This document shows, piece after piece, positions 42,501 to 62,612 of a stretch of DNA of 64,000 nt. The stretch's first letter is position 1, and each line of letters opens with the position of its first letter. The DNA comes from Candidatus Micrarchaeota archaeon (GTDB lineage Archaea > Micrarchaeota > Micrarchaeia > Norongarragalinales > Norongarragalinaceae): contig JACQQD010000008.1 in NCBI GenBank assembly GCA_016207165.1, positions 64,001 to 128,000 of the forward strand, in the 5' to 3' direction. A program made the translations under genes and the position numbers. The notes under the pieces are model-generated. The model saw only the letters and a list, made by a program, of their open reading frames with translations. It had not been told where the DNA came from and did no database searches.

Positions 42501-45500
42501 TGCCAACTCATCAAAGACCAGGAGCAATTCCAGGATTTGGCGACTTTTTCGGTGAACTACGACGCCGAAGAACTGGCGAAACTCGGTGACTTCAACCCCG
42601 AGGGATTGTTCTACAAGAATACGGGCCATTACCGGTACTTTGCCGTAATCAACAACGAGGAAAACCCCATTGAATTAAGCAAAATCTCCGGCGACGGCGC
42701 GGGACTGGTTTCATGCCAAATCCTTGACTCCAGCGGCCAGGTTTTGGCCGGGTTGCAGGTGGGCCACCGCATCAACCCCGGCGACGTGCGCATCGTGAAA
42801 TGCACGTCGGTTAAACCGGGGGCGGGGTCCATGATTTTGGACTTTTCCGGCGCCGCCTTTGCCAGGACCAAGACCGTGCACGTGGAAGTTTTCCAGCCTG
42901 ACTCGTCCGTCTCCAAATTGTATCAAGCGTCCCCCATCGGCCAAGTCTTTCCCTTCTTCTCGCCCAAGGACTCGTCGCTTGCCGAGAAAGCCAAGGTCTT
43001 GCAGCAAGCCGGTTCTGAAAAGTTGGAGTTCGCCGAGCAACAACCGCTGTTGGGCCAGGCGTCACCCACTCCAACTTCCATTCCCTCCCCTTCCCCAGCG
43101 CCCCAGACAGACGAAGAGAAAAAGAAACAAAAGGAAGAATTGGCTGCCGCCATCCAGAACGTCCGCGACTTTAGGTTCTGCAAGTCGTACTTCTGCACCT
43201 TCAGCCGGGGCCAGGAAGCCCTGTACTCGTTTGCCGACGCGTTCCAGAAAATCGTGAAACAAAAAACCGATGGCGAAGGTGGAGCGCCCACCATTCAGTC
43301 GCTTTCCAAGTTCTGTGACTCGCTTCAAGGCCTCTCCACGTACCGCAAATCCATGGTGCTCCAGTTGGCCAACGTTCAGTTGACCGGCGACGAGTCCTCC
43401 AGCGCCGTTTCGTCCCTTCGCAACGAAATCCAGGCGCAAGTCTTCGGCGGCGACGTGTCCACCGTGGAAATCAAGGCATCGGATGGAAGCGACGTTTTGT
43501 TCAAAGGCTGCGGAATCTACCAAGTCGAAGCCGTATTGAACCCCATGTGCGGCTCCGGGGCCGCCACTCCGGAGGCTTGGAAGAAATCCATGCGCGTGGA
43601 GTTCCGCGTCAACAAAATCGTTTCCTGTGAAGAGAATTTGGCCAACGCCGCACTGCTTACAGCTCAGGATGACGGCGGCATGTCGGCGTACACCGGCAAC
43701 CAACTCGGCCACGGCGTGGTCAACGCCATCCGCTCCGCCTTCTCGCGAAAAACCTTTTCCGCTTTGGCGGCCATTCCCCAAGCCGCGTTCAACGACAAGT
43801 CCGAAAGCCGGCTGAAAGACGTGTTGGAAAGCGTGGGCCGCGTGCGGCAAGGCGTACTCGGCCAATACGGCGTGGAGACGAATGAGAAAGACGAGGCTAC
43901 AGTCAAAGCGCTTTACCACGCGCTTTACAACGTGAACGTGCAAGAAAAGAAAGTCAAGTTGTGTCCCCGCCTTGGAAGCGGCTTGGCGTACACGGCGTGC
44001 CCCGCGAAACCCTACGAGGACGCAGGATTCTGCTGGCGCACCGGTTTTGGCGCTTACTCCACCATTCTAGGCACGTCGGTGGCCTTGTTTGCCGCGCAAA
44101 CCGCGTACGTGGCCAGCGGCGCAGGCGGCGCCGTGGCGCCTCTGGCTTGGTCGCGCGCCATTGCCAGCAATTACCGCCTCATTTCCGCGTACTCGGGTTG
44201 CTTGGCTGGCGCTGGGGCGGAAGTCTTCCAAGGACGCTCGGCCGCCTCATGCCGCGCGCTGGATGTCTGCACGGGGTCTGTGTTGTCTGGCATCGTGGAA
44301 ACCGGCATGCCGTTCTTCGGAAATTGGCGGCTTTTGAGGCCCCAAATCCAGGCCGCACAGGCCTCATCCCAGCTGTCGGCTGGGTCATCCGCCGTGGCGT
44401 CCTTCTTCCTGGAAGGATTGCTGGGCGCCGGAGTTTTGGCTGGACTGGAGGAAGCCGCTGGCTTGCAGGAGGCGCCGCCGGTGCCGGCCATGCCTGTGAC
44501 GTTCATCGTCCGCCAATTTGCTTCGCCAACAGCGTTGGAGCGGGAACTGGGTGCCACGCGCCGGTTCGTCTTCAACATGGCGCCGTATGCCCAAGTGCGT
44601 GGCTCGCCGGCGCACCGCCGCGCGCAAGTGGAACTTTTGAACCGGCAACTCGAAGCACAAGGCATCTACAACCGGCGCGCGTCGGCCGACGCCATCCGTG
44701 CGTTGTACGATGCAGGCGGTGGCGACGTACGTGGCGCGTTCCAGAACAGCCGATTGGTTCGCGCCCTGGCGGCCATGGATGACGGGCAAGTCAACCATTT
44801 GCGTGATTTGCTTGAGGCAGGGGGTCCGGGTCCAGTCCAGGAGCAGGAGATTCTCAATTACTTGGCAGAGTCATTCATCGACAGCAACCCGCAGAACGCG
44901 GTGTACACCCGAAACCAGATCATCCAAGGTCTGGGTTTGACTACGCCGGATGCCACCGGACGTCATGCGCGGCTCGCAGAGTTCATTCGAGATCTTCCGT
45001 TTTCCTCTCAGCACAATTTGTTCACGCGTCCAGGACTGAATTCGTACTTTACGAGAACTCAGTTGTCCAGTGAAGCCAGTCTACGCACTGCACTGGCGGG
45101 CAACGACGCCCGACTTTTCGGCCGTGACGCACCTTTTGCAAGGCAATTGTTGACTGAATTGACGTCGGAGGGTTCCGATGCGTTGCTTCCGTTGCCCCGT
45201 TCCGCTCGCGCGTCTCCTTGGTTTTTTGGCGTTCGCCCAATTGATCTCATGGATTTGGAGTCGCGCATTCCATTCCACGATCCGGCGGCACCAACCAACC
45301 GGTTCACTGCCGTGCAGTACAACACGTTTTTGAACGCATTGGGTGTGCCTCCGGGAGCGGCGCCAAGGGACGTGGCTACATCCATTTACACGGAGTTCCA
45401 GCGAGGCCGCATTCAATTGACCCAAATTGATCAAGCGCTGGCCGCTGCTGGCCAGGATCCGCTACCGAACGGCTTTGGCGGTCTTCGTTCACTACTTCAC

Positions 45501-46403
45501 CGCGACCTGCGGACGCTTCAAGGTCCCTCGTTCCAAGGCCTAGACGACGGCGTCGAACGCTTCCGGCGGCTCTTCCAGATGCACCAAGTCAACGACATTA
45601 CTGGCGCCCACACTTCAATCCGCCCCACTCAGTTCGCCGATCTGACGCCCGACGAACTCAAGGCGGCAAGGCAATTGTTGGAGGCCGAACGCCACATGCG
45701 CATCTTCCGCGGCGTGTCGTTCGTCACCGCTTTCCTAACCAGCTTTTTGTTCAACACGGATTTCCGGCCGGTGCAAGTGGAAGTGGATGCCGGTCGCGAC
45801 GGCCACGTCATTGCCTTGCACGCCGAAGACGGAAAATACACGGCGGAAAGCATTTGCGTGAAAGGCATCGCGGGTTCCACCAGCTTGGATTGCAAGCCCC
45901 CGGCATCCAACGTGCTGTCGCCGCAACAGCTTTGCGGTTCTTCCCCGTTGTGCATGCGTCTCTTGAAGTGGTCCAACGGCAAGGTGACGTCGTACGCGTT
46001 GGTGGTCGGCTTTAATGATGCCGCTCCAACTGATCCCGAGTACTTGAATTCCTTGTTCATTCCCAAAGAAAAGCCGGTGAACAAACCCTACATGACGTCG
46101 GCCAGAGTCCAGTTTGACCCCATTTCTGCCGCCGGCTTTTCCCAGTATCAGGCGGACGTGACTGACCCCAAGACGGCCACCCGCACCGCCCAAATCGAGG
46201 TGGCAAAAGCCATCATTTCCGACATGAACGACCAAAATTCCAGGGCCGCGTTCCCGGCGGACAAGCGTGACGCCGTCAAGAAACTCGCACAGGACGCCAT
46301 CAACGCCTTCAAGCTAGAGCACGACACCACGGGTTCAGCGCTTCTGGCCAAAGCCCAGCAAGCCGAGACCGCGCTTCGCGCCGGCACCACGGAGGGACGC
46401 TGA
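36573..46403 (+). CDS. Giant membrane-anchored surface protein (3276 aa): beta repeats, cupredoxin-like domain, Ig-like domains, Cys module, hydrophobic segments and a variable C-terminal insert
   Basis: Uninterrupted 9.8-kb ORF; E.KGIPS plus TM start shared with two paralogues. Confidence 0.88.
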   Translation: MVFDSFLDFADEHGLPFRSWAEALEEKGIPSFVLLLIPILVLGAAAFVLLSQAPSTGTVKIYAQSQDGQVLEGVSVSLVGPNGFKKEVATNAGGLAAFSDVPAGTIRVQAFSSQVVLKEPAFDVVVKAGQVATGTVFSEVSTRQSVVLTVDVRNAAEATIRVFDSKDGLVDMASGVTSNPFAVAPENTYRVVAESDGFLPAEQDVTVARDAVFVELILQEKDKPTQSQVHVNVFQQGLEEVPVENASVRIVSGDQVLAVRESSQDGSIVPVGVPLGANVTVLVSKEGFAEGVRNFNASRLEEVVVVELQKGVAATAGVTIRVRDSAGNPVFSPIVRLFEKGLLKEDVFASDGVAQFDVSSLSDLSAEVYKSGFLPKRVESLQRDNAVVLERASANNSGRVRVLVLDRNGLEVSGAAVQLLSEGQKPLGIPPRLSGTDGEQVFDDVPLGLAVAQAVLGPRVAQSSPVLVVPLNQSNETRATVQFEPVAVDVPVRVTDKFSSSPIRGAKVVVADGSCTTAADGACLLKSLESDDAVLSATANGFESFESAAFSVYPGMQVVPVELVSASVARDVKLSFDGVFDSAGRKVNFLDPVTSYEARYTIFQPNVSFSKAEAFISIQGGAVLLGGQSQKARVTKGGQNDFQEQFASQEVAITPEGLFPATVDVPAGGQVVFSNEDNATHVLAFDDGQSLSLNPGDKRSLAFNAVGSFGFKSLRSETLSGFVTVTEQAVFEVDDASSVLFEYPSFNGSKQLTVRFKTSREGDVVLSHRSAFFTPVEALRDPLEGVKQSGSLSIRFQGTCAENLCVQHYFEFGGRTHRELELPLGEPAELVFNVVGLEKPGEIRLDASPGLVLLSGRTETSSLQIRSNESSTIRIPAGRSEVRIQFEARRLAEDASIGFAVASDNAVLFEGDAFLHVFAKTQPALVVSVRPSKVLALEQSAVTFSVKDGFGEPVSDALVVLGDAEANPSSQVGQYVVESLQPESLQPVSFEVRKEGFKVFRGSLSVEAPDFVLEVSPSLVSLSVDSREKQSAPVQVTNLLGDALRLAVSVNVESGGELTDVDVSTSSLRLKGHESGSFDVLASLKEEVMQVARRSGALTEDVRGIVRIRSTAKGFSDAQEVRFQVQATQSQQSLDDVWLLSPDSLSYSLEPPRTKAESQEVTVSNNGPYPLVFNVEQTLGGLSVQPASLVIPSNQEDVFTVRASTPNELNCFSDDVQRQGAMTVYASFQGITSKKTAQINVDVLTSSLVCAPPNGYRVTLPVDARMMFQSVVKTKVNPDGSTAVLLPGGQLMWFESGASVTPVEAQVPPSTGFMLDRSLVQPLPEGGWTVRFPVQVVLSIPDDADRQPFGGGQTIITIENAQIILPPGVQSALPQLTRQASNEVVIPPLSPVTFRRVPFNYDAYANLLPADSVEVHLPADAVLDLPAGTVERKLPKQASTYDYLSSRQSTENLYNIKAIQLPGGERLAFGDQAAILINPSSLQNNPSQVRLPADAALFVSRHRVAQVENRDVSEAFTLTMPVPYSLTVQGEPVPFQTEGGLWGLKVNEKATVEASWKPSVTKTSSQNVVRVVRENSLTYLSGASARIPVDPASLAKCSFSYEHEQSVSFLIPQGASLSKKAGRYEVVLPRCDETSKLTFHVSDSALGTADVLETPAIRKITFPDSAEVLGDLSASEEKQVTVKGTIEFVACLKDEQGKDVTETLKTMRVGFNEKSLVSVPERAILGLSKDQREMDFEVLTPVTLKPEGVTSTSLGSTKKMTMERQGRPVTFVGPPDYDRTGIVMEPGSELLFVPVCQKGTGRLDITATAEDVVVREKDKTEKAPLEVTFSNKNFKKSESRELVLINSGTQAVNLDGVSSEADASLDQRYRTYLTSILRTDTDHAFLQSPGVFGQKQKLRLEGRAPSEEPRQHVFVVKLELPDDMVIQNQCIKSEFDGVAMNGAYVFSLTDLNGDAISESQNHRMPVIVRFDAKAEDCQLIKDQEQFQDLATFSVNYDAEELAKLGDFNPEGLFYKNTGHYRYFAVINNEENPIELSKISGDGAGLVSCQILDSSGQVLAGLQVGHRINPGDVRIVKCTSVKPGAGSMILDFSGAAFARTKTVHVEVFQPDSSVSKLYQASPIGQVFPFFSPKDSSLAEKAKVLQQAGSEKLEFAEQQPLLGQASPTPTSIPSPSPAPQTDEEKKKQKEELAAAIQNVRDFRFCKSYFCTFSRGQEALYSFADAFQKIVKQKTDGEGGAPTIQSLSKFCDSLQGLSTYRKSMVLQLANVQLTGDESSSAVSSLRNEIQAQVFGGDVSTVEIKASDGSDVLFKGCGIYQVEAVLNPMCGSGAATPEAWKKSMRVEFRVNKIVSCEENLANAALLTAQDDGGMSAYTGNQLGHGVVNAIRSAFSRKTFSALAAIPQAAFNDKSESRLKDVLESVGRVRQGVLGQYGVETNEKDEATVKALYHALYNVNVQEKKVKLCPRLGSGLAYTACPAKPYEDAGFCWRTGFGAYSTILGTSVALFAAQTAYVASGAGGAVAPLAWSRAIASNYRLISAYSGCLAGAGAEVFQGRSAASCRALDVCTGSVLSGIVETGMPFFGNWRLLRPQIQAAQASSQLSAGSSAVASFFLEGLLGAGVLAGLEEAAGLQEAPPVPAMPVTFIVRQFASPTALERELGATRRFVFNMAPYAQVRGSPAHRRAQVELLNRQLEAQGIYNRRASADAIRALYDAGGGDVRGAFQNSRLVRALAAMDDGQVNHLRDLLEAGGPGPVQEQEILNYLAESFIDSNPQNAVYTRNQIIQGLGLTTPDATGRHARLAEFIRDLPFSSQHNLFTRPGLNSYFTRTQLSSEASLRTALAGNDARLFGRDAPFARQLLTELTSEGSDALLPLPRSARASPWFFGVRPIDLMDLESRIPFHDPAAPTNRFTAVQYNTFLNALGVPPGAAPRDVATSIYTEFQRGRIQLTQIDQALAAAGQDPLPNGFGGLRSLLHRDLRTLQGPSFQGLDDGVERFRRLFQMHQVNDITGAHTSIRPTQFADLTPDELKAARQLLEAERHMRIFRGVSFVTAFLTSFLFNTDFRPVQVEVDAGRDGHVIALHAEDGKYTAESICVKGIAGSTSLDCKPPASNVLSPQQLCGSSPLCMRLLKWSNGKVTSYALVVGFNDAAPTDPEYLNSLFIPKEKPVNKPYMTSARVQFDPISAAGFSQYQADVTDPKTATRTAQIEVAKAIISDMNDQNSRAAFPADKRDAVKKLAQDAINAFKLEHDTTGSALLAKAQQAETALRAGTTEGR
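36593..36620 (+). repeat. 28-bp direct repeat, copy inside the giant gene start
   Basis: Identical to 35043-35070. Confidence 0.9.
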
Positions 46404-51298: not shown

Positions 51299-52735
51299 AT
51301 GGCTTTCAGGGGTCTTTCCCGGCTTCACTGGGTCGTCTTGGCCATTGTTTTCGTTGCTGGCGCCTTATGGTATCTTTCTTCCACTTCTTCCGCTCCGGTC
51401 CGCGATTTAGGCGGTTCTGCCTCTCCAACCCCTTTGGCTGTTTCCGACCAGACGCTTTCCGGAACCCCAACGCGCATTTCGTATGAGGGTTCCACGGTTT
51501 CGCTTGAACGACACGTTTCCGAGGACGGCAAGACGCATACGTCGGTAGTTGAGAATTTGGGTGAGTCCACGGTGAGCGTGGGCATCATCACGGTTGTTCC
51601 CAAGTCGCTGGCTTCCTCGGCTTCGCAACTGGGGCTTTCAAAAGATGTCGACGTTCTGGAGGACGACCCCATCGTTCTTCGCCTCGTTGACTTGGGTTCC
51701 GGTCAGAACGCGGCTCACAGCATTGTTTTGAAGTCAACGGCTGGACGTGACCGGGGCGTGTACCACATTTTTGTTTTGAATGCTAAGATGTGGTTGAACC
51801 AGTACACGGAGCAATTCGCGGAATTGGTGCAATTGCTGAAGACCTTGCCGGACAACGTTTCCAACGATGAGGCGAACCAGGTTTCGGATGCCTTCAGCCG
51901 TATTCTGAACGGAGACGGTGATCCCGCAGCCCGCATTGTTTCTGCGAAAGAGTACTTGGCGTCCAAGTCCACCGGCGCTGTCACGTTTGCGGTGGACGAG
52001 GACCAGCCGTTCGGCGACGTCCAAATGCAATTGTCTATTGACAACCCCGTTTCCTTGTATGCTTTGCCTTTGTCCAATGAGTTCACCTCGGTGCTGGGTT
52101 TGGGTACGCACTTGGGCGTCCGCCAGGGTTATGCTCACGTGCAAGGCCAAGATTCCGCTTTCGGCGGTCTTGAACCTTCCTATTTGCAGGACTACGTCAA
52201 GTTGGTTCAGACTAAGGACGGCGGTTATGCGTTGTTGGCGGACTTGCAGGCTCCGGCGCGCCAATCCCTGCCGGAATTCTCGGTTTCCGGACGCGCGGAA
52301 CTGTTCTTCTCTGGCCGGCCCAACACGGCTATTTTGGTTCCCATTCGCGTGGACTTGCTGCCGGCCGAGCACTTCGGCGACTCCAGCCTAGACACGCCAT
52401 TTGACTTGATTGCGTACGATTGCGGCGACTTGCAAAACGAGTTGGGCATTGCGGAACACGCGCTTTTGACCAAGGCCGCGCAGGTGGACGAAGTCAACGA
52501 CCAACTGCTTTCAGGAGACCAAGTCACGCTGGTTAGTTCCTTGCGCGTGAACTTGGAGCGTTTTGACGGCTTTCCCGAGGAATGCCAAGGCTTGCCGGAG
52601 ATTTTTGAAGGAATTCCGTTCAAGGCCAGAAAAATCAACGTGGTGACTTACTCTTACAAGGAGGGCGAGGCCACGTGGGAGTTGGTGGAAGAAGAACCAC
52701 CTACTTTTCGGGAAATCGAGGTTTCGGATTCATGA
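51299..52735 (+). CDS. Membrane-anchored surface protein, paralogue of 53814-55574
   Basis: TTTAAATA box upstream; N-terminal TM; P.RDLG, VPKSLASSAS.L and DVLEDDP motifs. Confidence 0.82.
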   Translation: MAFRGLSRLHWVVLAIVFVAGALWYLSSTSSAPVRDLGGSASPTPLAVSDQTLSGTPTRISYEGSTVSLERHVSEDGKTHTSVVENLGESTVSVGIITVVPKSLASSASQLGLSKDVDVLEDDPIVLRLVDLGSGQNAAHSIVLKSTAGRDRGVYHIFVLNAKMWLNQYTEQFAELVQLLKTLPDNVSNDEANQVSDAFSRILNGDGDPAARIVSAKEYLASKSTGAVTFAVDEDQPFGDVQMQLSIDNPVSLYALPLSNEFTSVLGLGTHLGVRQGYAHVQGQDSAFGGLEPSYLQDYVKLVQTKDGGYALLADLQAPARQSLPEFSVSGRAELFFSGRPNTAILVPIRVDLLPAEHFGDSSLDTPFDLIAYDCGDLQNELGIAEHALLTKAAQVDEVNDQLLSGDQVTLVSSLRVNLERFDGFPEECQGLPEIFEGIPFKARKINVVTYSYKEGEATWELVEEEPPTFREIEVSDS

Positions 52736-52772
52736 GTATCTTTTGTAACGAGGGGTTTGGAGGTTGTCGGGT

Positions 52773-53657
52773 ATGACTTGGAAAACGTTTGGAGTATTGG
52801 GTTTGGCTGCCGCACTTTTCTTGACGTTGGGAGCCTTTGTCGTAGGCGCGCCGGGAGGGACGCCCGCGGGCGGTCCTGCGACTCCGAAAATTATCTACTG
52901 TGCGTACAAAAGCCAGTCTTGGCTTCTTGACTCCTCTTTGTTGCAGAAGTATCCAGACGCCTGGTTGGTGGCGAACAACTACATTCGCTATCTGATGAAA
53001 GAAGGTGTCATTGCCGACGGTTCGGTGGGCACTTCGACGTCCGGCGGCGTGTACCATAAGGCTGATTACAACCCGGCTTTTGAAAACCTGTATATTGATT
53101 TGTGTTACCGTTCGGGCGTGACTCAAAATAAACTTAGCCTTATTTCCAGTGAGGAATATGCTGAGCGGGCTTTGGCTGACTTGAAGTCCTTTGCCAAGTC
53201 GAACGTTCGGTCGCAAGCGCTTGATGACGCTTTGACGGATTTCCGCGTATGGGTCAACGATAATTTGGGAAAGGCCAAGACCAAAGTGGTTCGGGGGGCG
53301 CGGGATTTCTGGAATGATTGGTTGGATGCCCAAAAGCGGCTTGCCACTGAGACGAACGAGCAGGCTAAGCGCGTGTTGACCTTGGCTGTCCAAGTCAATA
53401 AAGAAATTGGTGCCAACGAGATGCTGTCTGATAAAGAACAAACCGAAAAGAAGACGCGTGTTGTCGTTATTACCGGTTTGATGACTGAACTTATTAAGAG
53501 CAACCCAGGCATCACGGCTTCAGTAAAGGGCAAGTCGGACAAAGAAATCAAGGACATTTTCTACCGATATTTGCGGGATGAATCGGCCCCGGTAGATTCT
53601 GAAACCGTAAAGTCGCAGTTGCTCGCCCGTCTTACGGGCGGCCTAGTAGCGACTTAG
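52773..53657 (+). CDS. Secreted alpha-helical hypothetical protein
   Basis: SD GGAGG; signal peptide; lower GC than its flanks. Confidence 0.78.
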   Translation: MTWKTFGVLGLAAALFLTLGAFVVGAPGGTPAGGPATPKIIYCAYKSQSWLLDSSLLQKYPDAWLVANNYIRYLMKEGVIADGSVGTSTSGGVYHKADYNPAFENLYIDLCYRSGVTQNKLSLISSEEYAERALADLKSFAKSNVRSQALDDALTDFRVWVNDNLGKAKTKVVRGARDFWNDWLDAQKRLATETNEQAKRVLTLAVQVNKEIGANEMLSDKEQTEKKTRVVVITGLMTELIKSNPGITASVKGKSDKEIKDIFYRYLRDESAPVDSETVKSQLLARLTGGLVAT

Positions 53658-53813: not shown

Positions 53814-55574
53814 ATGTCGGACGCCTCTTTTTCGGTTGCATCGGACGGCGAAAAACCGTCGTTGCCGTTAATTGGTTTGGCGGTGTTGGTGGTGTTGGCT
53901 GGCGCCGTAATCTTTTTGTCGCAAAATTCCACCACCCCGTTTCGTGACTTGGGTTCTCCGGCGCCCCCGCAAGCCGCTTCGGTTTCTGGCGTTGTTTCTT
54001 CCACGGAGTCTTTTTCGCTTTCCGGTGCCCAAGTCCGAGTCGATTCCGAGGTCTTCGTGGTTGGCGAACGCATGACGGAAAAAGTGGCTCTTGAAAGTTC
54101 CAGTGCTTGGACGGGTTACTTCGTGGAAGTGATTCCCAAAGAGTTTGCGGCTTCGGCTTCAAAATTGGATTTGAATGGATATTCGGACGTCCAAGTTCTG
54201 GAGGATGACCCCGTGATTGCCGTTCCCATCGTGCTTTCGCCTGGTAGCCCGGTTTCGTTGTCGAAAACCGGTTCCAGCACCAATCTCCGCTTGCTTCACT
54301 TCCTGGTTTCGGACGACGCGCTGTCGTCGGATGCGTCCGAGCGGAAAGAACAGCTCAGGCAAATTGCGGCGGCGTTTGGCGCGTTGGACTTCGAGCAGTT
54401 GCTGGTGTTCACCGGAAGTGACATTGAGGCGTTTCAAGGGGATGTTTCGGGTTTGTTGAGCGATTCGTCGAAGACTTTTCCGGAGCGCGTGGCCGCGTTG
54501 AAAGGGAAAGTCTCGGCGCAGACGTCGTCGGAGAACGTGGAAGCTGCTTTGAAGAGAAGCGAGAACAAGATTTACTTGGAACTCAATCCGTATGCGCCTT
54601 CTTCGACGTACCGGTTGCCCGTGGTTTCGACGCGAGGCTCTGTCGAATTGACCCGCAATGCGTTTGCGCCTTTGTTGAAAGTGTCTGGGTTGGACGTGCC
54701 CCGGCTTGAGACGAACGTCGGTTTTTCCCAAAGCGTTGAGACCGATCCGTGGCTTGTCGAGGTGGCCGTCGACGCGTCTCGGGTTGAAACTTCAGGGGGC
54801 AAACTGGTTCTGGACGGCGAGCCATTGATCAACGCATTGGGGTCTTTGGATGTGCAATTCACCCAGGAATTGGACGTCAAGCAAAGCATTCCGTTTTTGG
54901 TTGAGTTCACGCAGCCGCCGGTTGCCGATTACTTGGCGTTTTATGTTCCCGCCATTTATTACGGGTCCACTGACGTGCCCTTCTTGATGAGAAACGACGC
55001 ATCCATGGATTTCCAAGTCAGCGTGTGCGGTCAAGAACAAATTTTGTCTGCTGAAACTTGGCAAGTTCTTTACGTGTCTCCGGAAAAAATCGACGACTGC
55101 CAAATCACGCAGGGAACGGAAACCCTGGTCTTGGGCGGAAAGACGGGGTTGACGGCGATGCCGGTTCGCGTGGATTTGTCCAAAGAGGATTATTCGCCGG
55201 ATGTCAAGGCGGCTTTGTCTGGGAATGGATACTTGTTCCACCGGTATGCCGTGCCGCTTTCCGAGTCGCCGTCGGATTACTGCTCCAACCGCTTGTGTAC
55301 CTGCGATGCGGCCGTTGAATCGACCAAGAATTTGGTTCTTCGGGCAACGGAATTGAACCGCCTTTACCAGGCAACGCATGCTTCGACTTTGGTGCTTTTG
55401 GATTCGACGGAAGCCGGTTGTGAATACGAATTTTCGGAGGATGGGCGACTTTCGCTTGAACCCGGTCTAAATGTCGTCCAAGCCACTTTTTCCGAATCCA
55501 ATGCGCACGACCAGCCATTCACCGTCGTGGTTTCAACTGAAAAAATAAAGGGCGGGTTCTTCGGGGCGGACTAA
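53814..55574 (+). CDS. Membrane-anchored surface protein with C-terminal Cys module
   Basis: TM; PFRDLG, IPKEFAASAS.L, QVLEDDP and YCSNRLCTC motifs. Confidence 0.82.
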   Translation: MSDASFSVASDGEKPSLPLIGLAVLVVLAGAVIFLSQNSTTPFRDLGSPAPPQAASVSGVVSSTESFSLSGAQVRVDSEVFVVGERMTEKVALESSSAWTGYFVEVIPKEFAASASKLDLNGYSDVQVLEDDPVIAVPIVLSPGSPVSLSKTGSSTNLRLLHFLVSDDALSSDASERKEQLRQIAAAFGALDFEQLLVFTGSDIEAFQGDVSGLLSDSSKTFPERVAALKGKVSAQTSSENVEAALKRSENKIYLELNPYAPSSTYRLPVVSTRGSVELTRNAFAPLLKVSGLDVPRLETNVGFSQSVETDPWLVEVAVDASRVETSGGKLVLDGEPLINALGSLDVQFTQELDVKQSIPFLVEFTQPPVADYLAFYVPAIYYGSTDVPFLMRNDASMDFQVSVCGQEQILSAETWQVLYVSPEKIDDCQITQGTETLVLGGKTGLTAMPVRVDLSKEDYSPDVKAALSGNGYLFHRYAVPLSESPSDYCSNRLCTCDAAVESTKNLVLRATELNRLYQATHASTLVLLDSTEAGCEYEFSEDGRLSLEPGLNVVQATFSESNAHDQPFTVVVSTEKIKGGFFGAD

Positions 55575-55577
55575 TCC

Positions 55578-58500
55578 ATGCGTTTTTTTGTCTTCATTGT
55601 TTTCCTGGTGTTGGCGGGTTTGGCTTCATCCGCCGCCTTTGACTTGGCCAACCAACCCAAAGTCAGCGTATACATCGGCTCGGATGCGTCCGTTCCCCAT
55701 GCTTCCGGCGGGGCTTCGTACGCGTTTCGTTTGGCCGGCCCCGCCGTGGTCGGACCCAAGGGGATTGAGGCCAAAATCCAGGCCACGCGTTCCGGCCAAG
55801 CCGAGTGTCCCGGTACAATCAAGGTCAACACGCAGGAGCAATACGCGTGCAACACGGTGTGCATTCGGTTGATTGGCTACCGGACGCAAGCCGCCATTGA
55901 TGCGGACAGCGCTTCCGGTCAACAACCTCTTTCCCAAGAGGACGCCATCGGCGAGCACGCTTTCATGCAAATAGGTTTGAAGTCATCGGATGGCTCGTGT
56001 AATGTCGCGCCGACGGCCGCGGATGTCCAGGCCCTCGCGCAATCGTCGTCGAAAATGACTCCTGAAGAGCAGGCCCGCGCAAGCCAATCCATTTCCGGCG
56101 GCTATCACCGCTTCCTGAAAGACGTTTCAATCGATGTGGCGTTGCTGGCTGGCATCCGCTTCAAGCGGGCGACGCCGCAATACTTGGAGCACCCCCGTGA
56201 ATTGACGGACTTGATGGCCAGCTTACACAAAGTGGAATACCTCGTCTTTCATGCCCCGACGTTTTTGGGCGTCCGCGATACCGTGGAACAATCCCAACTC
56301 GCGATTCGCGCGAATTCCGTGGAGTTGGCGTCAAGCGCCATTGCCTCCTGCGGCGCTCATCCCGCCTTTTTGGAGGAGTTTTCCGTGAATGGTTATGGGC
56401 CCAGTTCACTGTTTTCCGTTGGCCCCTCCGATGAATGGATTCGCTCGTCGTACAAGACGGCGGCTTCCTTGGATGAAGCCAAACAATTTCTTTCCTGCAT
56501 CGGGCAAATCAAGGGCGAAAAGGGGTACTTCTTTTTCGACCGGAAAATTGACCCCAAGACCATCACGCGCGCCTTGGAGGATCCAGGGTACACGTTTTTG
56601 ACGGAGTACGACAAGTCCCGCCGGCAGGAAGGCAACCTGGATGTGACGCAAGCGGACCGCGTGGTTTTCGCCTACGAATTTGGCAAGTACCTGTATACGC
56701 AGAAAGAGGACGCCGACGCCATCAACGTGCTTTCCGCCGCGATTCTGGAAGCCGAGCGGTTGCGCATTCCCAACGTGGTTCACCCTCAAAGCGGTTTGGG
56801 ACTCCAGAAAGACGCGTTTGACACCATCAACGCCGTTTTGGCGCGGCAGGGCCGGGAACCCATGGCGACGCTGGGCGGTTGCCTCAACGGCTTCTTGAAT
56901 CCGCTTATCATCCTAAAACCTCTTCAGTTGCTCAAGATAGGTGCCAAGACCGGCGCCGTCATGTCTGCGGGCGGCCGCGTCATCCACTTGGGCTTTGCTT
57001 TACAAGGCGGTCAGCAACTCATTGGCGCGGCCCAAACCGCGCAGGAGTCGGCTTTGGACTCCACCATTTCGGGTGTGTGCGGGACGGTCATGTTTTTTGG
57101 CGGCCTGAAAGCGGGTCTGACGCGAGCCCCCGCGGCGTCTACGGAAATGGTTCGAACGCCTGAGACAGGCAAATGGGTGTCGCGTCCGGTCATTGGAGGC
57201 TCCAAGGCGGCGTCGGCGCGTGCCTTGGTCTTGAACAAGGAATTGGCGGATACCCCGGTTGAGTTGGTTGTACAACGCTTCACCAAGTTTTCAAGCCAGC
57301 TTAAACCCGGTGAATCCGCTGGAGAGTTTTTTGTGCGGTTGACGGTGAAAGGCAAAGAATTGACTATTCGCGTCACGCCCGAAAACCATCGAGCCGTTTT
57401 GGCGGACGTGTTGCACATAAAGGCGACGCTGGCCATGGAAAAAGCAGACGCCGCCCAGTTTTCTCCCAGTTCCATCAAGGAGTTCCAGCAGGCGCTCTCG
57501 GAATTGTCGAAAGTGGATTCGGAGAAGGCATCATTCTACAACGAGTTCAATTTCCAGTTGAATGAACTGCTGAACGCCAAATCGAAGGAGGCCAAGCAGT
57601 CCATCCAGGAAAAACTCATCGGTTTGGTCTTCCAGCTATCCAAGCCTGAAAATAATCCCGCCAAGCAGCGCATCACGTTCTTGCAAGCGTTGCCTTCCGG
57701 CAAAGCCCAGACTCTGGATGGCTTGACCCCTGCCCAACCCCCTGGAACCGCTCAGCCCAGCGATCGCCGGACCCTCACGGAGCGCTTGCAAGCCGCGACG
57801 GAACTCTTCAAGAAGGCGAAAGAAAAGTTCGGCCGCAGCCTTTCGCGCGTGAAACAGTTCTTTTCGTTCAAGGACGGCCGGAGGATTGAAGTTCCGGAAG
57901 AGGCGTCCAGCCAAATCGCGGACGCCCACGTGGCGGCGTCGGCGACCGGCGAAGCCCAACAAGTCGTTGTTGAGGTTTTGGTGAACGGAAAGAAGCAGAA
58001 CATGCCGGTGTTTGTTCGCCCTGGCGGAAAATTTTTGTCGATTGAGGAAATCAAGCAAGTGGCCAAAGACGGGAAAACCACGATTGCGGGAGTAGTTCGA
58101 CTCGGGGAATTGGTCGTTTTTGATACCCGCCCCCAGAACCTGCGCTTTTTGCAAACTATTCGCCTCAATGACCTGCTTTCCGACTCCAGGCCCCTGCCTG
58201 CTCTTCGTGAATCGGTTACGGCGTTGGCGGATGCCGAAACCCTGTCAACTGATCCTTCAAGCGCCGGCAAGTCAACTCGTCCAGGTGACGCCGTCCAATT
58301 GCCTGAAACCCGCTGGAAGGATGCGTTGACGCGTCTGGGGTTAAGGCGAAATGGAAAATATGATGCCTACTACTTGGTTGAAGGTGCGGCGTTGCGGAAT
58401 GGGGTTCCCCTCCGTTTCGAAGTGACTGGATCCGACAACCACGTCGGTTTTCTGGTTTTGAAAATCATCCGGAACAAAATTCCGGAAAGCATTCGCGACG

Positions 58501-61160
58501 CGACCATTGAAACGCTCAAGAAGGAGGGTTTCACGGAGCACTCCGACGGCACCGTGTTCTCGAAGGAAGTCGACGTCCGGGGCCAGCAGGTGCTCTTGGT
58601 TCCAAAGCCGGGAGCCACAGGCTTGGCCACCCCGATCTTGGATACCGTGGCACCGGAGTTCCAGGCCTTGATTAAAGAACTTTTGCCAAACGAAGGCCGC
58701 GCCCAACGCGTTGCAACCGTGGAGGAAGCCGAAGCCCTGCTTGGGGAAAAAGGTTTGCTGGCGGATCCAACCGCCAAGACCCAGGAAGGCGGCAACCCAT
58801 TTGACCCCGGCAAACTTATTGAAGATCAAGCCGCCAAGGCCGAGCCCAATGCTCGTGAAGTGGCCGAGGAACAACGCCGGCTTGCGGAAGAGCAATCCAA
58901 AGTCGAACCGGTGCGCGCTCCAGTGCAAACCCAGGATGGGGTGTGGGAGGTTTCGGAAGGCCGTGGGTTGACTGTCGGTCGACTGACCGCCAACCGAGTC
59001 GTTCTTCCATCCGAGTCCATTGCCCGCCGGCAAGGAACCTTTTCCGCGGATTCAAAGGACGGCGTCTTTTACGTCAACACTGGTTCAACGAGCGGATACA
59101 GGGTTATTCGGGGCCGCAACGAGCAGGAGTATCCGGGGAGCCACACGGAACCCGTTTCGCTTAAGGCGGGGGACTCCGTTGTATTCGCGGACGGTTCCCG
59201 CGTCGTCGTGGACTCTTATTCGCCGAAATCCGGTTCCGGGCCTGCGGTGGCCCGCTTCCGCGTTGAACCCGCGGAAACGTCTACGTCGCCCACCCTGGAA
59301 ACTCTTCCGAGGACGAAAGGTGGTTCGTATTCGATTACGGGTTGCGCCGTTTGCCTGACGCAAAATCCGTTGGCCAGGGATTTCCTGGTTGACGAGGGCC
59401 AGAAGGCTTCGGTCGGACGCCAGGAAGGCAACACGATCATGTTTGAAAATGCGCATGTTAGCCGCGAGCAAGGAAGGTTCGACGTGGGCGCGCTGGGCGT
59501 TACTTACACGAACTTGGGCAGGTCGAACTTCTTTGCCGCTGTAATCGGGGGCCGCCGCCATGATTTTCCTCCGACGCACGGCGAGCCCATTTTGCTTGGC
59601 CCGTTTGATTCCATTCTTTACTTGAACGGCGAAAAAATCGTCGGCAGCATTACCGTTCAAGAGTTCGCGAAAGCCGCGTCGACGGGCAGTTCCCGGCTTT
59701 TGTTGCGCGTGGAGCGCGCTGGCTTCACTTCAACTCCGGAAACAGAGGGGGGGCCCGCAGTGACTCCGGAAAAAGCCGAGGCCAACCGCGAGGCGTTTGA
59801 AAAGCCACCGGCGCGTGCGTCCGGCGCCAAGCCCAAACTTGAAGTGAAAAAAGCCGGAGTGGCCGAACAGGCCAAAGTGGGGGAAACGGTATCCCAAGAT
59901 TCTCTTTTGAGCATAGAACAAGGTGACCGGTCGGTGGATGTCGTCGCAGATGGCGTAGGCGGCGCGCTTGGAGGCAGAGTCGCGTCGCAAGCCTTTGTAA
60001 ATGGGATTAATACCCGCTTTCCAGAAATGACGGATCAACTTTCGTTGGAAGAAGCCTTTAATGGAGCTGCAGGAGACACCGTCAGCGCGTTACGCCCTGT
60101 TTTAGAAGCAAACAAGTTTGACCGTGAGACTGGCGAGCCGTTGAATCCGCAGGGCGGCACCACGGCGTTGGTTCTTCTGATCAACGGACGTAAAGCGCAC
60201 CTCGCGGGCATCGGGGATGGTGCGTTGTTTATGATTCGCGGCGGTAATATTGAACTGTTATCGGAAATACACAACGACGCGTACGGCGCCCGCGGTCAGG
60301 TTGCGGGTTTGAGACCTGAGGACGCTTTCGTTGACAGAACCGAAGCCGGCGTAAATACGATGCGTAACTCCATTACCCGATCGATTGACGCCGGGATATA
60401 CGACGGGGAGTTCGAATCCTCTCAAGGCATCCCTCGGGGTCAGCATTTCTCTCGTGAATTCTCCGTACAAGACGGCGACCGGTTTATTCTCGTTTCAGAT
60501 GGCGTGGCGGATGTGGTCACGCCGACCGAGATTCGCGAGATTGGCAGACGGGGTACGCCGGAACAAGCCGCCCAAGCAATCTTGGCCTTGGCCCGACAGC
60601 GCATCTCCGGCCGGCATGAAGGCAACTTTGAAGGTCGCAAAATTCCCATCGACGGCAAGAACGACGACATTTCCGTCATCGTGCGGGATGTCGGCGAGCG
60701 GCCGGCTTCTGAGGAATCCTCTTCGGAGCCTTCGCGGTCCGAACCTGCGGTGGCGCGTTCGGCTCCTCCGGCAAGCATGGATTTGGAGCCGTTTACCCGG
60801 CTGATGCCTGCTGGGCCGACTTATTCCATTCGCATTGGCCGCGACGCCGTAAATGATGTGGTGTTGCCCAATGACTTCGTCAGCCGCTATCAGGGGGTGT
60901 TGCATTCGGATTCCTCCGGTCGGTTGTTTTACGAAAACGAAGGCGGATCCAATTCGTTTTGGCTTGGTCGTGGAGGCAGTTTGACGGAGTTGTCGGGTCG
61001 CCGAACCATTGAACTGCGTGTTTTAGACTCGATTTTCTTTGCCGATGGAAGCCGAGTGTACTTCCGTCACCTTAACCCCGCTTACCCCGGTTCGCTGCCA
61101 AGCGCGGTTTTCGACTTTTTCCCGAAATCCGTGGATGCCCCCGAATTTCAACCGACGTGA
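55578..61160 (+). CDS. Signal-peptide protein (1860 aa) with a hydrophobic segment, three FHA domains and a PP2C/PPM phosphatase
   Basis: FHA motifs GR...N......I/V(A/S)R.QG at about 58977, 59415 and 60837; PP2C motifs VADGVGG...G..AS, GGTT, GIGDG, LVSDGV.D and DDISVI. Confidence 0.88.
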   Translation: MRFFVFIVFLVLAGLASSAAFDLANQPKVSVYIGSDASVPHASGGASYAFRLAGPAVVGPKGIEAKIQATRSGQAECPGTIKVNTQEQYACNTVCIRLIGYRTQAAIDADSASGQQPLSQEDAIGEHAFMQIGLKSSDGSCNVAPTAADVQALAQSSSKMTPEEQARASQSISGGYHRFLKDVSIDVALLAGIRFKRATPQYLEHPRELTDLMASLHKVEYLVFHAPTFLGVRDTVEQSQLAIRANSVELASSAIASCGAHPAFLEEFSVNGYGPSSLFSVGPSDEWIRSSYKTAASLDEAKQFLSCIGQIKGEKGYFFFDRKIDPKTITRALEDPGYTFLTEYDKSRRQEGNLDVTQADRVVFAYEFGKYLYTQKEDADAINVLSAAILEAERLRIPNVVHPQSGLGLQKDAFDTINAVLARQGREPMATLGGCLNGFLNPLIILKPLQLLKIGAKTGAVMSAGGRVIHLGFALQGGQQLIGAAQTAQESALDSTISGVCGTVMFFGGLKAGLTRAPAASTEMVRTPETGKWVSRPVIGGSKAASARALVLNKELADTPVELVVQRFTKFSSQLKPGESAGEFFVRLTVKGKELTIRVTPENHRAVLADVLHIKATLAMEKADAAQFSPSSIKEFQQALSELSKVDSEKASFYNEFNFQLNELLNAKSKEAKQSIQEKLIGLVFQLSKPENNPAKQRITFLQALPSGKAQTLDGLTPAQPPGTAQPSDRRTLTERLQAATELFKKAKEKFGRSLSRVKQFFSFKDGRRIEVPEEASSQIADAHVAASATGEAQQVVVEVLVNGKKQNMPVFVRPGGKFLSIEEIKQVAKDGKTTIAGVVRLGELVVFDTRPQNLRFLQTIRLNDLLSDSRPLPALRESVTALADAETLSTDPSSAGKSTRPGDAVQLPETRWKDALTRLGLRRNGKYDAYYLVEGAALRNGVPLRFEVTGSDNHVGFLVLKIIRNKIPESIRDATIETLKKEGFTEHSDGTVFSKEVDVRGQQVLLVPKPGATGLATPILDTVAPEFQALIKELLPNEGRAQRVATVEEAEALLGEKGLLADPTAKTQEGGNPFDPGKLIEDQAAKAEPNAREVAEEQRRLAEEQSKVEPVRAPVQTQDGVWEVSEGRGLTVGRLTANRVVLPSESIARRQGTFSADSKDGVFYVNTGSTSGYRVIRGRNEQEYPGSHTEPVSLKAGDSVVFADGSRVVVDSYSPKSGSGPAVARFRVEPAETSTSPTLETLPRTKGGSYSITGCAVCLTQNPLARDFLVDEGQKASVGRQEGNTIMFENAHVSREQGRFDVGALGVTYTNLGRSNFFAAVIGGRRHDFPPTHGEPILLGPFDSILYLNGEKIVGSITVQEFAKAASTGSSRLLLRVERAGFTSTPETEGGPAVTPEKAEANREAFEKPPARASGAKPKLEVKKAGVAEQAKVGETVSQDSLLSIEQGDRSVDVVADGVGGALGGRVASQAFVNGINTRFPEMTDQLSLEEAFNGAAGDTVSALRPVLEANKFDRETGEPLNPQGGTTALVLLINGRKAHLAGIGDGALFMIRGGNIELLSEIHNDAYGARGQVAGLRPEDAFVDRTEAGVNTMRNSITRSIDAGIYDGEFESSQGIPRGQHFSREFSVQDGDRFILVSDGVADVVTPTEIREIGRRGTPEQAAQAILALARQRISGRHEGNFEGRKIPIDGKNDDISVIVRDVGERPASEESSSEPSRSEPAVARSAPPASMDLEPFTRLMPAGPTYSIRIGRDAVNDVVLPNDFVSRYQGVLHSDSSGRLFYENEGGSNSFWLGRGGSLTELSGRRTIELRVLDSIFFADGSRVYFRHLNPAYPGSLPSAVFDFFPKSVDAPEFQPT

Positions 61161-61290: not shown

Positions 61291-62040
61291 TCATTTCGGC
61301 ATTTTCTGGATGGCGAGGCGGGCGGCGTCATCAAAATCCACGGGGTTGGGGCTCAAGGCGTTCATTTCCGTTTTCCAGATTTTTTCGGTTTGCCGTACGC
61401 GTTTTTGGAATTCATTGGCGTTGAAGGTTTTTTCGTAGTACGTCAGTTTGCCGTTGACGAGTTCTTTGTCGGGGACGGCGTTTCTTCGTAAAAGAAAGTA
61501 GAGGTCGTACAGGTCGCGGGCGGATTGGCGGGTGAGGATGGCGCGGATTTTTTCGGCGGCGATTTCCGTTGCGTCCATGGTCTTGAGTGCGTAGGGGAAC
61601 ACGTCGGGATACGGCGGTTGAATGCTGGTGATGACGGGTTCCAGACGCGTTTTTTCGCGTAGGCTGAATTCAAGTTGCACCGTGCATTCGCTGATGGGTT
61701 TTCCCATGTAAAGCGGGCCGCGGACGCGCAGTTTGGCGGTTTTCGAAACGGGGGTTTGACTGGTTTTCCACGTGGGTTCGGAAAAGCCCGCTGAAGCCAA
61801 AAACGCGGAGGCATTATCTGCGTCGGGTTGTTCTTCCTGGTCCGCCAGCGTAAAGTCCAAGTCCTCGGAGTAGCGGGGAAGCTGGAAGGCTTTCTGGAGG
61901 CAGGTGCCTCCCTTGAAGACGCCGGCAAACCCGGTGCGCGACAAGTACGACAAAAGCCAGTGCTGGACGTAGTCTTTCTCTTTTTGGCCTAATGTGAATC
62001 CCGGCGGCCCGTATTGGTCGAGTCCTTTCCGGTCAAGCAT
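61291..62040 (-). CDS. abiEii: AbiEii nucleotidyltransferase toxin
   Basis: EKDY, FKGGTCL, RYSEDLDF and AEKI.A...R...RDLYD motifs. Confidence 0.92.
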   Translation of the reverse strand: MLDRKGLDQYGPPGFTLGQKEKDYVQHWLLSYLSRTGFAGVFKGGTCLQKAFQLPRYSEDLDFTLADQEEQPDADNASAFLASAGFSEPTWKTSQTPVSKTAKLRVRGPLYMGKPISECTVQLEFSLREKTRLEPVITSIQPPYPDVFPYALKTMDATEIAAEKIRAILTRQSARDLYDLYFLLRRNAVPDKELVNGKLTYYEKTFNANEFQKRVRQTEKIWKTEMNALSPNPVDFDDAARLAIQKMPK

Positions 62041-62593
62041 GGCGCATCAGGTTTTTCAGGCGTTTGTTGGCGGCGGCGCTGGACAAGTAAGGCGGAATTT
62101 TTCCGGCTTTGACGTGGGCCAGTGCTTCCATGATGATGGCCGCCGGACAGCTTTTGGGGATGCTGATGGCGTCGGCCACGGCTTTTTCGGGTGTGGCCAG
62201 GAACAGGTTGTCTTTTTTCTCGTAGGCCCGGAACTGGTTTTTAGGGACGCGGTATTCCTGGACGGGTGTTCCAAGGACCTGATACTTTTTTGCGTTGCGC
62301 GTGACGGCAAGCTGGATGGTGCGGTGGGGTTGTGTGGTCAATCCGTGCAAGTGCAATGCGGTGTGGAAAGACACGTAGGCGGGGGTTGAAATCTCGCAGG
62401 CAACGGCTTCATGCATGGCATCGGAAAACGCCCACCAACCGCGATGGACCAAAAAAAGGACGCCTTTTTTGTGGAGGCGATGCAGGTGCAGACGCGCGTA
62501 CGCCGGGTTTTGGGCCAAGGCGACGAATTCTTTGGTGCGGAAGGCGGCGCGCCCGGAACCCCGAAGAATTTCTATGATTTTATTGCTTTTCAT
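62033..62593 (-). CDS. abiEi: AbiEi antitoxin
   Basis: wHTH, PAYVSFHTALHLHGL..Q and ATPEKAVAD motifs. Confidence 0.9.
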   Translation of the reverse strand: MKSNKIIEILRGSGRAAFRTKEFVALAQNPAYARLHLHRLHKKGVLFLVHRGWWAFSDAMHEAVACEISTPAYVSFHTALHLHGLTTQPHRTIQLAVTRNAKKYQVLGTPVQEYRVPKNQFRAYEKKDNLFLATPEKAVADAISIPKSCPAAIIMEALAHVKAGKIPPYLSSAAANKRLKNLMRHA

Positions 62594-62612
62594 TATCAAA
62601 AATGATAACGAA
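62589..62612. promoter_or_regulatory. Inverted-repeat operator of the abiE operon
   Basis: TTCATTATCA-AAAA-TGATAACGAA overlapping the start codon. Confidence 0.6.

Follow-up and report, generated by a model that had tools for sequence, protein, structure and literature searches.

A very large FHA-PP2C protein with a signal-peptide-like N-terminus in a groundwater Micrarchaeote: a candidate exported phosphatase

Results

Architecture and occurrence of the 1860-aa protein

Here, we describe a gene in a 64,000-nucleotide stretch of Candidatus Micrarchaeota archaeon DNA (GenBank assembly GCA_016207165.1, contig JACQQD010000008.1, positions 64,001 to 128,000 of the forward strand), which is referred to throughout as the window. 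The gene (P0001) encodes a protein of 1860 amino acids (aa) in which a signal-peptide-like N-terminus and a long orphan N-terminal part precede three FHA domains arranged around a PP2C (PPM) phosphatase domain (Table 1). It is the last in a same-strand row of four genes (478, 297, 586, and 1860 aa), the other three being N-terminally anchored orphans, and only 3 nucleotides separate the stop codon of the 586-aa gene from its ATG. The source genome consists of 1.27 Mb in 12 contigs, with 56% GC, and is 90% complete. An earlier description made from the letters alone (hereafter, the sequence-only reading) had proposed the order signal peptide, Cys-containing N-domain, Gly/Ala-rich and moderately hydrophobic region, ~600 aa of unfamiliar sequence, and FHA-FHA-PP2C-FHA. 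Our analysis confirmed this layout overall, and the coordinates and length of the open reading frame (ORF) proved exact by the ORF list and translation.

Sec signal peptides have a charged start, a hydrophobic core of ~7 to 15 residues, and small residues at positions -3 and -1. On a simple reading of its sequence, the N-terminus of the 1860-aa protein shows these features: a single Arg lies before the core and Ser-Ser-Ala-Ala after it, and the Kyte-Doolittle mean (19-aa window) within aa 1-25 is 2.51. The signal peptide was judged by hydropathy and these simple criteria, with the site of cleavage placed by visual inspection. Membrane anchors typically have a longer hydrophobic core than this one, which has the look of a cleavable Sec signal. 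Both the hydropathy and the M-R/core/S-S-A-A layout support the signal peptide of the sequence-only reading.

Cys residues are found at positions 77, 91, 95, 141, 258, 307, 435, and 501 (the next ones being 1256/1259), and six of them fall within the N-domain, in keeping with its description as Cys-containing. This domain gave zero Pfam match and zero match in 1.84 billion representative proteins, and a search of the ESM Atlas with aa 1-550 (top score, 0.85) led to unnamed clusters and provided no lead. The Gly/Ala-rich region could be placed at aa 428-515 (18% Gly and 11% Ala); this module ends in M-x-F-G-G-L-K-A-G-L...A-A-S, a motif with no second copy in the genome. The ~600 aa that follow also lack a family match, and no homologues of this middle region were found among the 1.84 billion representative proteins. 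In a single-sequence AlphaFold model, the N-terminal 1100 aa reached a mean pLDDT of 41, with the N-domain below 50 and the middle region at low confidence except for helices at ~aa 630-700 (pLDDT 70-79).

Topology was judged by hydropathy windows. The internal maxima of the protein (19-aa windows) were 1.31 at aa 428-446 and 1.27 at aa 496-515, and those of the soluble IMPDH, GMP synthase, CTP synthase, and GT4 enzyme encoded in the window were 1.27-1.44. By this measure, no canonical transmembrane (TM) helix lies between the N-domain and the catalytic part, where hydropathy stays in the range of soluble enzymes.

Among the three FHA domains of the sequence-only reading, FHA1 and FHA3 were recognized by Pfam; FHA2 was missed by Pfam and is supported by paralogy, given its similarity to FHA1 (29% over 83 aa; pairwise E 6e-14) and to FHA3 (E 6.6e-5). 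FHA3 and FHA1 share 39% identity over 79 aa. FHA domains contact phosphothreonine through the Arg of a Gly-Arg pair, the Ser of a Ser-x-x-His loop, and an Asn. Reading the sequences against this motif, we found the Arg, the loop Ser, and the loop Asn in both FHA2 and FHA3. FHA1 (...SIARRQG...) keeps the Gly-Arg pair, but it has Ala in the loop Ser position, bearing out the earlier claim that this Ser is missing, and Ser at the position of its paralogues' Asn; all three domains have Gln in place of the loop His. By these residues, FHA1 is degenerate, and FHA2 and FHA3 hold the predicted phosphothreonine-binding residues.

The phosphatase domain matched Pfam PP2C_2 with 55.5 bits (cut-off 24; aa 1436-1650) and PP2C with 31.7 bits (cut-off 20.3). 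Its score for the NCBIfam Stp1 equivalog was 57.6, below the cut-off of 230, which excludes orthology with Stp1. When the domain was aligned with 13 other PPMs, D1441, D1458, D1547, D1634, D1641, and D1696 proved invariant, which agrees with the metal-binding Asp motifs having been called intact. The AlphaFold model built with this 14-PPM alignment displayed a PP2C core with pLDDT 84-97, and the top Foldseek matches were tPphA, PstP, and PppA (E ~1e-15; target-normalised TM 0.74-0.79). Among solved structures, the top sequence match was PppA (6jkv; E 6.9e-6), at an identity of ~20%. Judged by these residues and the model, the phosphatase domain looks active.

The gene is near-identical in contigs of four groundwater metagenome runs from one study, one of which is possibly the source of the DNA. 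Across these runs, it shows four single-base differences and zero indels, too few differences for a selection test, and no RNA dataset was listed as holding it. Homologues of the whole protein or of its N-terminal part were found neither among near-length proteins nor in scans of genomes and metagenome contigs; more specifically, there was none in 2 same-genus genomes or in 25 same-family genomes, and a search of 61 relatives returned matches to the PP2C region only. We propose that this is a fast-evolving, modular, very large protein of a groundwater Micrarchaeote.

Table 1. Features of the locus and related features elsewhere. Unprefixed positions are those of the window; prefixed ones carry the handle of a genome (with contig) or locus.
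Feature	Position	Strand	Extent and content	Basis or remarks
Whole gene P0001	55578..61160	+	1860 aa; ATG 55578, stop 61160	ORF list and translation
Signal-peptide-like N-terminus	55578..55637	+	aa 1-20	M-R, ~14 hydrophobic residues, S-S-A-A
Orphan N-domain	55638..56858	+	aa 21-427; 6 Cys	No Pfam match
Gly-rich, weakly hydrophobic module	56859..57122	+	aa 428-515; 2 Cys	Composition and hydropathy
Orphan middle region	57123..58877	+	aa 516-1100; Cys-free, partly helical	No Pfam match
FHA1	58971..59186	+	aa 1132-1203	Pfam FHA E 3.8e-8, 34.1 bits (cut-off 20.7)
FHA2	59382..59627	+	~aa 1269-1350	Paralogue of FHA1; no Pfam match; low-confidence model
PP2C/PPM domain	59883..60686	+	aa 1436-1703	Pfam PP2C_2 E 7.3e-15, PP2C E 1.7e-7
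FHA3	60828..61067	+	aa 1751-~1830	Pfam FHA E 3.8e-6 (27.7 bits) over aa 1751-1798
Upstream gene	53814..55574	+	586 aa	N-terminal membrane anchor, hydropathy 2.86
Anchored orphan	51299-52735	+	478 aa	ORF and hydropathy
Anchored orphan	52764-53657	+	297 aa	ORF and hydropathy
AbiEii/AbiEi-like pair	61291-62599	-		AbiEii Pfam E 5.6e-31, PADLOC E 2.8e-61; clear
AbiEii/AbiEi-like pair	35114-36332	-		AbiEii E 3.6e-4 beside winged-helix gene; weak
G009 769-aa protein	L044:7237-9546	+	Signal peptide, Cys N-domain, Gly-rich module, C-terminal HD	HD, Pfam E 2.7e-10
Murein hydrolase (L057)	G000:C6:114642-117635		997 aa; N-terminal hydrophobic segment	Peptidase_M23, Amidase_3, SLT
Orphan kinase-fold ORF	G000:C5:21812-22723	-		Weak Kdo/Pkinase matches
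Orphan kinase-fold ORF	G000:C6:162994-163989	-		Weak Kdo/Pkinase matches
Bimodal sequon examples, genome G000	L054-L065, L068
Bimodal sequon example	20939-25702	-
Bimodal sequon example	26225-32521	+
Bimodal sequon example	32555-35005	+

Sequon avoidance

The 1860-aa protein contains no N-x-S/T sequon, compared with 7.5 expected from its composition. Such a zero count was reached by 0.02% of 20000 shuffles and by 0.8% of random 1835-aa cytoplasmic stretches. For aa 516-1860, there are 0 sequons vs 6.0 expected, and zero occurs in 2.3% of 1345-aa cytoplasmic stretches. As regards a loss of the N-G-T sequon from the FHA loops, which we considered, only one of four FHA relatives within the order has this sequon.

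Crude ORF calls gave a total of 1053 ORFs for the genome, and those of at least 200 aa were classed by hydropathy as exported (53, whose sole hydrophobic segment is N-terminal), cytoplasmic (349, lacking any such segment), or other (377). The cytoplasmic class is neutral for sequons (398 observed vs 412.9 expected). Depletion at P<0.05 was found in 14 of the 504 ORFs of at least 300 aa, comprising 10 exported ORFs, 3 others with hydrophobic segments (class M), and the 1860-aa protein; none came from the cytoplasmic class, in which short proteins are unable to reach low depletion P values. Large exported and membrane proteins are in fact bimodal, some being enriched (77 vs 30, 75 vs 24.5, 60 vs 21, 77 vs 29.5, and 38 vs 13.7) and others depleted (2 vs 14.2, 1 vs 9.5, 2 vs 11.4, 4 vs 13.6, 0 vs 5.3, and 0 vs 4.6). 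We know of no description of such bimodality in exported proteins, for which the literature was not searched. The genome has an STT3/AglB gene. Collectively, sequon depletion in this genome is confined to exported and membrane proteins, from which the export of the 1860-aa protein gains independent support. Sequon counts are a cheap, sequence-only hint as to whether a protein meets the archaeal glycosylation machinery, and they could help to predict the topology of archaeal orphans.

Proteins with domains of a typically extracellular kind, namely Ig-like giants and a murein hydrolase with M23, Amidase_3, and SLT domains, are among those depleted, as is a Hint-domain protein. One 1601-aa surface protein of the genome (L056; G000:C9:74691-79496) combines CarboxypepD_reg/Ig-like repeats with a Hint_2 domain near its C-terminus (aa 1469-1518), a layout resembling that of polymorphic toxins with a releasable end. 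Another 32 ORFs of the genome that are exported or have an N-terminal anchor included, by Pfam, no second exported signalling enzyme.

A candidate relative with an HD domain

Outside its own genome, the N-domain of the upstream 586-aa gene was found only in one genome of the same family (G009), that is, in 1 of 67 other genomes of the order. On the G009 contig, a 291-aa anchored protein is followed by a 613-aa homologue of the 586-aa gene and by a 769-aa protein whose ORF overlaps the 613-aa stop codon. The 769-aa protein has the same series of N-terminal parts as the 1860-aa protein and ends in an HD domain (Table 1); it has paired Cys (C-x-x-C and C-x5-C) and 0 sequons vs 4.2 expected. Its module ends in M-x-Y-G-G-V-K-G-G-L...A-A-S, as compared with M-x-F-G-G-L-K-A-G-L...A-A-S. 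The module is the only portion of the N-terminal part that aligns, with a local score of 61, which 0.15% of 2000 shuffles attained; when the N-terminal parts were aligned whole, 1.3% of 300 shuffles attained the score of that alignment. These sequence comparisons are suggestive of a relationship between the two proteins. The check for homologues of the N-terminal part, which had been called for from the sequence alone, thus yielded one weak candidate, with HD in place of FHA/PP2C. No further members were found in 401 genomes of the phylum, 5.8 billion proteins, and two contig collections, and searches with the G009 protein and with two-sequence profiles returned nothing beyond G009 itself.

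Kinases and PP2C proteins in the genome and in other Micrarchaeota

No Pkinase match above the Pfam cut-off was found in the producer's genome at its 90% completeness. For the window, the sequence-only reading had reported no kinase; this holds, given that there is no Pkinase match on the contig or in the scanned window ORFs. Besides a RIO and a Bud32-like kinase, two orphan kinase-fold ORFs are the sole candidate protein kinases in the genome, and one of them bears the catalytic-loop-like motif H-N-D-L-K-L-K-N. In addition, no other gene in the genome carries an FHA or PP2C domain. Across the order, a full kinase domain occurs in 1 of 68 genomes (E 3e-42), the remaining kinase matches being to part of the model in ORFs of ~160-510 aa, mostly Bud32-sized. 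FHA was found in 4 and PP2C in 10 of the 68 genomes (own genome counted), and the sequences of seven small PP2Cs of the order, when read, had no hydrophobic segment.

PPM phosphatases had been described at the outset as uncommon in archaea. This agrees with their absence from four archaeal control genomes (PP2C_2 in 0/4) but not with the phylum itself, in which PP2C_2 occurs in 49 of 401 genomes sampled, including 34 of 76 from a family designated f19. This family encodes fourteen ORFs of 730-1745 aa (loci L089-L102) with a long orphan N-terminal part and a C-terminal PP2C; the best BLAST match to the 1860-aa protein was 26% over 318 aa (E 3.6e-11). On this sequence evidence, the PP2C of the f19 giants belongs to the same subfamily. 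In its last motif, G-K-N-D-D-I-S, the 1860-aa protein shares the D-D form with 12 of the 14 giants. We considered whether D-D-I-S, as opposed to the D-N-x-S/T of 13 of the 14 aligned PPMs, reflects the removal of a sequon, and rejected this; the D-D form is a subfamily trait, because those 12 giants share it yet are not sequon-depleted. Indeed, the giants contain 75 sequons vs 72.5 expected, and none of the 14 has zero sequons or a hydrophobic N-terminus. No FHA match was found in them by Pfam. One giant has many ankyrin repeats (notable among the f19 loci: L091:4516-9711, minus strand).

The f19 genomes are kinase-rich: full Hanks kinases occur in 46 of 81 genomes (22 of 22 in one genus), with up to 15 per genome, and a kinase match lies within ~10 kb of the PP2C ORF at five of the six loci with contigs among the matches listed. 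This Ser/Thr signalling set is unexpectedly rich for DPANN archaea. The giants are thus like the 1860-aa protein in having an orphan N-terminal part followed by a PPM of the same subfamily with the D-D last motif (12/14), and unlike it in lacking a signal peptide and a Pfam FHA domain, in their neutral sequon counts, and in their kinase-rich genomes.

Genomic setting

The 586-aa gene is likely a co-translated partner of the 1860-aa protein. The N-domain of the 586-aa gene has a counterpart in the 478-aa gene (36% over 137 aa). The 478-aa and 297-aa genes gave no Pfam, NCBIfam, or PADLOC match, and no PADLOC anti-phage defence model matched the 1860-aa protein or any of the three upstream genes. 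The locus lies beside genes for three giant surface proteins of Ig-like type and beside two toxin-antitoxin pairs (AbiE); the next gene downstream, on the opposite strand, encodes an AbiEii toxin. One of the neighbors, a 3276-aa protein (36573-46403, plus strand), has an N-terminal anchor and Ig-like repeats, followed by a Gly/Ala-rich hydrophobic stretch at ~aa 2400-2640 and a 640-aa helical end; its C-terminal third is conserved in a same-genus genome (G001) at 36% identity.

G001 keeps both flanks, namely the end of the 3276-aa protein with a 187-aa gene on one side and an AbiE gene with the GT4 gene on the other, and the genes between them differ; therefore, the 1860-aa protein sits in a variable island. 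In G001, this island (L018; G001:C17:116001-136000) contains other orphans, including a 927-aa Gly-rich and Pro/His/Ala-rich protein, as well as a match to low-molecular-weight phosphotyrosine phosphatase that is below the cut-off (E 6.7e-4). A 534-aa protein of the island was considered as FHA-like and dismissed, having no Pfam support.

Elsewhere in the producer's genome, the murein hydrolase L057 has an N-terminal hydrophobic segment (Table 1), and our search found no SEDS polymerase and one Mur-ligase-like gene only. An exported murein hydrolase without a SEDS polymerase suggests dealings with bacteria, and archaeal peptidoglycan hydrolases aimed at bacteria have been documented (PMC12352652). 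The genome also exports scavenging enzymes, e.g., a staphylococcal-type nuclease.

Discussion

We tentatively propose, as a reading that falls somewhat short of an even chance, that the 1860-aa protein is a Sec-exported "chassis plus cargo" protein that acts on the phosphoproteins of a partner cell. A cleavable signal peptide would carry it across the producer's membrane. The orphan Cys-containing N-domain and the Gly-rich, weakly hydrophobic helical module would form the chassis, the module perhaps having a role in crossing or entering the target membrane by analogy with the translocation hairpins of toxins. The C-terminal cargo would be the PPM phosphatase flanked by the three FHA modules; these may dock on threonine-phosphorylated proteins of the partner, from which the phosphatase would erase the mark. 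That the protein leaves the cytoplasm whole is favoured because an export signal without a TM helix, the avoidance of sequons over the full chain (as against the f19 relatives, which are neutral and signal-less), and the missing kinase partner occur together. Since the producer lacks a Hanks kinase as well as any further FHA or PP2C gene, the substrates are most likely phosphoproteins of another cell (i.e., a host or neighbour), and bacteria are plausible partners because of the exported murein hydrolase and the wide bacterial use of Hanks kinases and FHA proteins.

A bolder version, which we regard as speculative and fairly unlikely, is that an epibiont here makes a self-delivering signalling enzyme, with a new translocation chassis that brings alternative cargos (FHA/PP2C or HD) into its partner, maybe a bacterium. 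If this were true, the phosphatase would erase the threonine-phosphorylation signals that hosts use to sense and fight epibionts, and Archaea would have their first known phospho-signalling effector.

The sequence-only reading had left the choice between a receptor phosphatase and an injected effector, and had named canonical TM helices, an invariant cargo, and a cognate kinase as findings that would together tell against the effector. Hydropathy revealed no such helix (internal maximum, 1.31), the cargo was not seen to be invariant, in that the sole candidate relative carries HD, and the genome has no full Hanks kinase and four kinase-fold ORFs. None of the three thus speaks against an effector, for which delivery would follow by inference, and the receptor is weakened. 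Nonetheless, several points weigh against an exported protein that acts in a partner. The genome is 90% complete, and its four kinase-fold ORFs (RIO, Bud32-like, and the two orphans) could supply substrates at home. The sequon argument rests on crude ORF calls and rough hydropathy classes, and two of 20 exported ORFs that were checked are cytoplasmic enzymes with over-extended starts. According to a classifier of exported vs cytoplasmic composition (AUC 0.89 in cross-validation), the protein is a patchwork, exported-like at aa 26-175, 226-425, and 876-1325 and cytoplasm-like at aa 376-875. By Pfam, the protein has no Hint or protease release domain, and no immunity-like gene lies downstream; it bears no secretion-system signal, and no delivery route is known. 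The homology of the chassis consists of one weak pairwise alignment (P 0.0015 for the module and 0.013 for the N-terminal parts) together with synteny.

Other points on that side are also what favours a receptor-type membrane phosphatase, with the N-domain as a sensor outside and FHA/PP2C in the producer's cytoplasm, which we hold to be possible although on the unlikely side. Its module, in an oligomeric or glycine-zipper packing, would make an odd number of membrane crossings, and its PP2C would reset the phosphorylation brought about by RIO, by Bud32, or by the pair of orphan kinases, as in KAPP and membrane-bound bacterial PPMs. A sensor, a membrane segment, and a cytoplasmic PP2C or HD form by far the commonest architecture, PP2C and HD being domains that classically serve receptors as outputs in the cytoplasm, and exchangeable enzymatic ends suit a receptor family of varied outputs no less than an effector chassis. 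In both the 1860-aa and the G009 protein, an acidic loop precedes the last hydrophobic stretch and basic residues follow it (T-R...R...K and K-V-R-K-A-A-S-V-K-K, respectively); such a basic stretch would be expected behind a stop-transfer membrane segment whose C-terminal side is cytoplasmic. Moreover, the G009 module holds one borderline hydrophobic window (1.75), and the PP2C subfamily looks intracellular elsewhere in Micrarchaeota (f19). Against such a receptor stand the low internal windows of the 1860-aa protein itself, an insertion energy that sums to +5 to +7 kcal/mol in a rough calculation, the zero sequons in aa 516-1860, and a genome without a Hanks kinase, another FHA, or another PP2C.

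The evidence for export would serve as well for a surface protein that works outside any cytoplasm, its FHA domains serving in phospho-independent attachment and its phosphatase acting on extracellular substrates (e.g., in phosphate scavenging) or idle. The loss of the phosphate-contacting Ser and Asn from FHA1, the Gln for His in all three FHA domains, and the export of scavenging enzymes such as the nuclease would be in line with this. It nevertheless seems quite unlikely to us, in that Arg, Ser, and Asn are preserved in FHA2 and FHA3, as is every catalytic Asp in the PPM, which points to real phosphoprotein chemistry, and prokaryotes are not known to offer a pool of phosphothreonine substrates outside the cell. 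Least probable, in our view, is that the N-terminal hydrophobic stretch is unused, or that the gene is a decaying recent mosaic, the protein being cytoplasmic like the f19 giants. The recurrence in Micrarchaeota of giant orphan-plus-PP2C proteins without a signal peptide, the lack of homologues of the N-terminal part in our searches, and the position in a variable island flanked by AbiE genes would suit this explanation; the 5.6-kb frame, however, is intact and free of indels in four runs, its ATG is tightly coupled to the upstream gene, the candidate relative in G009 has the same type of N-terminus, and the zero sequons are unlike f19 (0/14).

Returning to an exported protein that acts on a partner cell, we find partial parallels in known systems. 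KAPP of Arabidopsis, with its membrane anchor, kinase-interaction FHA, and PP2C, has FHA and PP2C in one chain, as does the 1860-aa protein. A bacterial FHA-PP2C fusion is described for Deinococcus as DRA0334 (10.64898/2026.01.23.701218). Both are phosphatases docked on phosphothreonine proteins inside the producing cell, next to cognate kinases, whereas the protein described here has three FHA domains and a 1100-aa orphan N-terminal part with a signal that looks cleavable, avoids sequons, and is without a kinase partner. The best solved relatives of its phosphatase domain, PppA (of the PppA/Fha1/PpkA threonine-phosphorylation switch in type VI secretion of Pseudomonas aeruginosa), PstP of Mycobacterium tuberculosis, and tPphA, differ in being cytoplasmic domains of 230-260 aa at ~20% identity. 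In PstP, a cytoplasmic N-terminal PPM is followed by one strong membrane helix and an outside C-terminal part, i.e., the reverse of the order found here.

PP2C-hn of Toxoplasma is a secreted PP2C phosphatase, and PPM3C of the same parasite is described as another (PMC7793252). These offer a precedent for a parasite that exports a signal-peptide-bearing PPM to act beyond its own cytoplasm; they differ in using the eukaryotic secretory pathway, in having no FHA, and in being related in sequence at the family level only. Polymorphic and self-translocating A-B toxins join a conserved delivery part, with a weakly hydrophobic, Gly/Ala-rich hairpin, to a swappable enzymatic end. Like them, the 1860-aa protein has a signal peptide, a module at a conserved position, and a different enzymatic C-terminus in its sole candidate relative, and its hairpin-like module has the hydropathy of soluble proteins. 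Unlike them, it has no immunity gene and no Hint-type release domain, its family counts two members only with weak homology, and its cargo is a signalling enzyme instead of a recognised toxin domain.

The FHA and PP2C families are already known, and giant PP2C proteins recur in Micrarchaeota. What is new is that a signal peptide, an orphan chassis, and a triple-FHA phosphatase are joined in one sequon-free protein whose genome has no Hanks kinase; there is also a hint of an alternative cargo. In the open-access literature that we searched on DPANN PP2C and on Micrarchaeota hosts and secreted effectors, no such protein is described. The manipulation of hosts by DPANN archaea is almost unknown at the molecular level, and this gene provides a concrete candidate. 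Actinobacteria are reported in a preprint to detect Patescibacteria epibionts via a kinase whose target is a threonine in a protein with an FHA domain (PMC13622651). An FHA-phosphatase made by an epibiont would be the natural counter-move to such kinase/FHA sensing, which exemplifies the type of pathway that the enzyme could silence.

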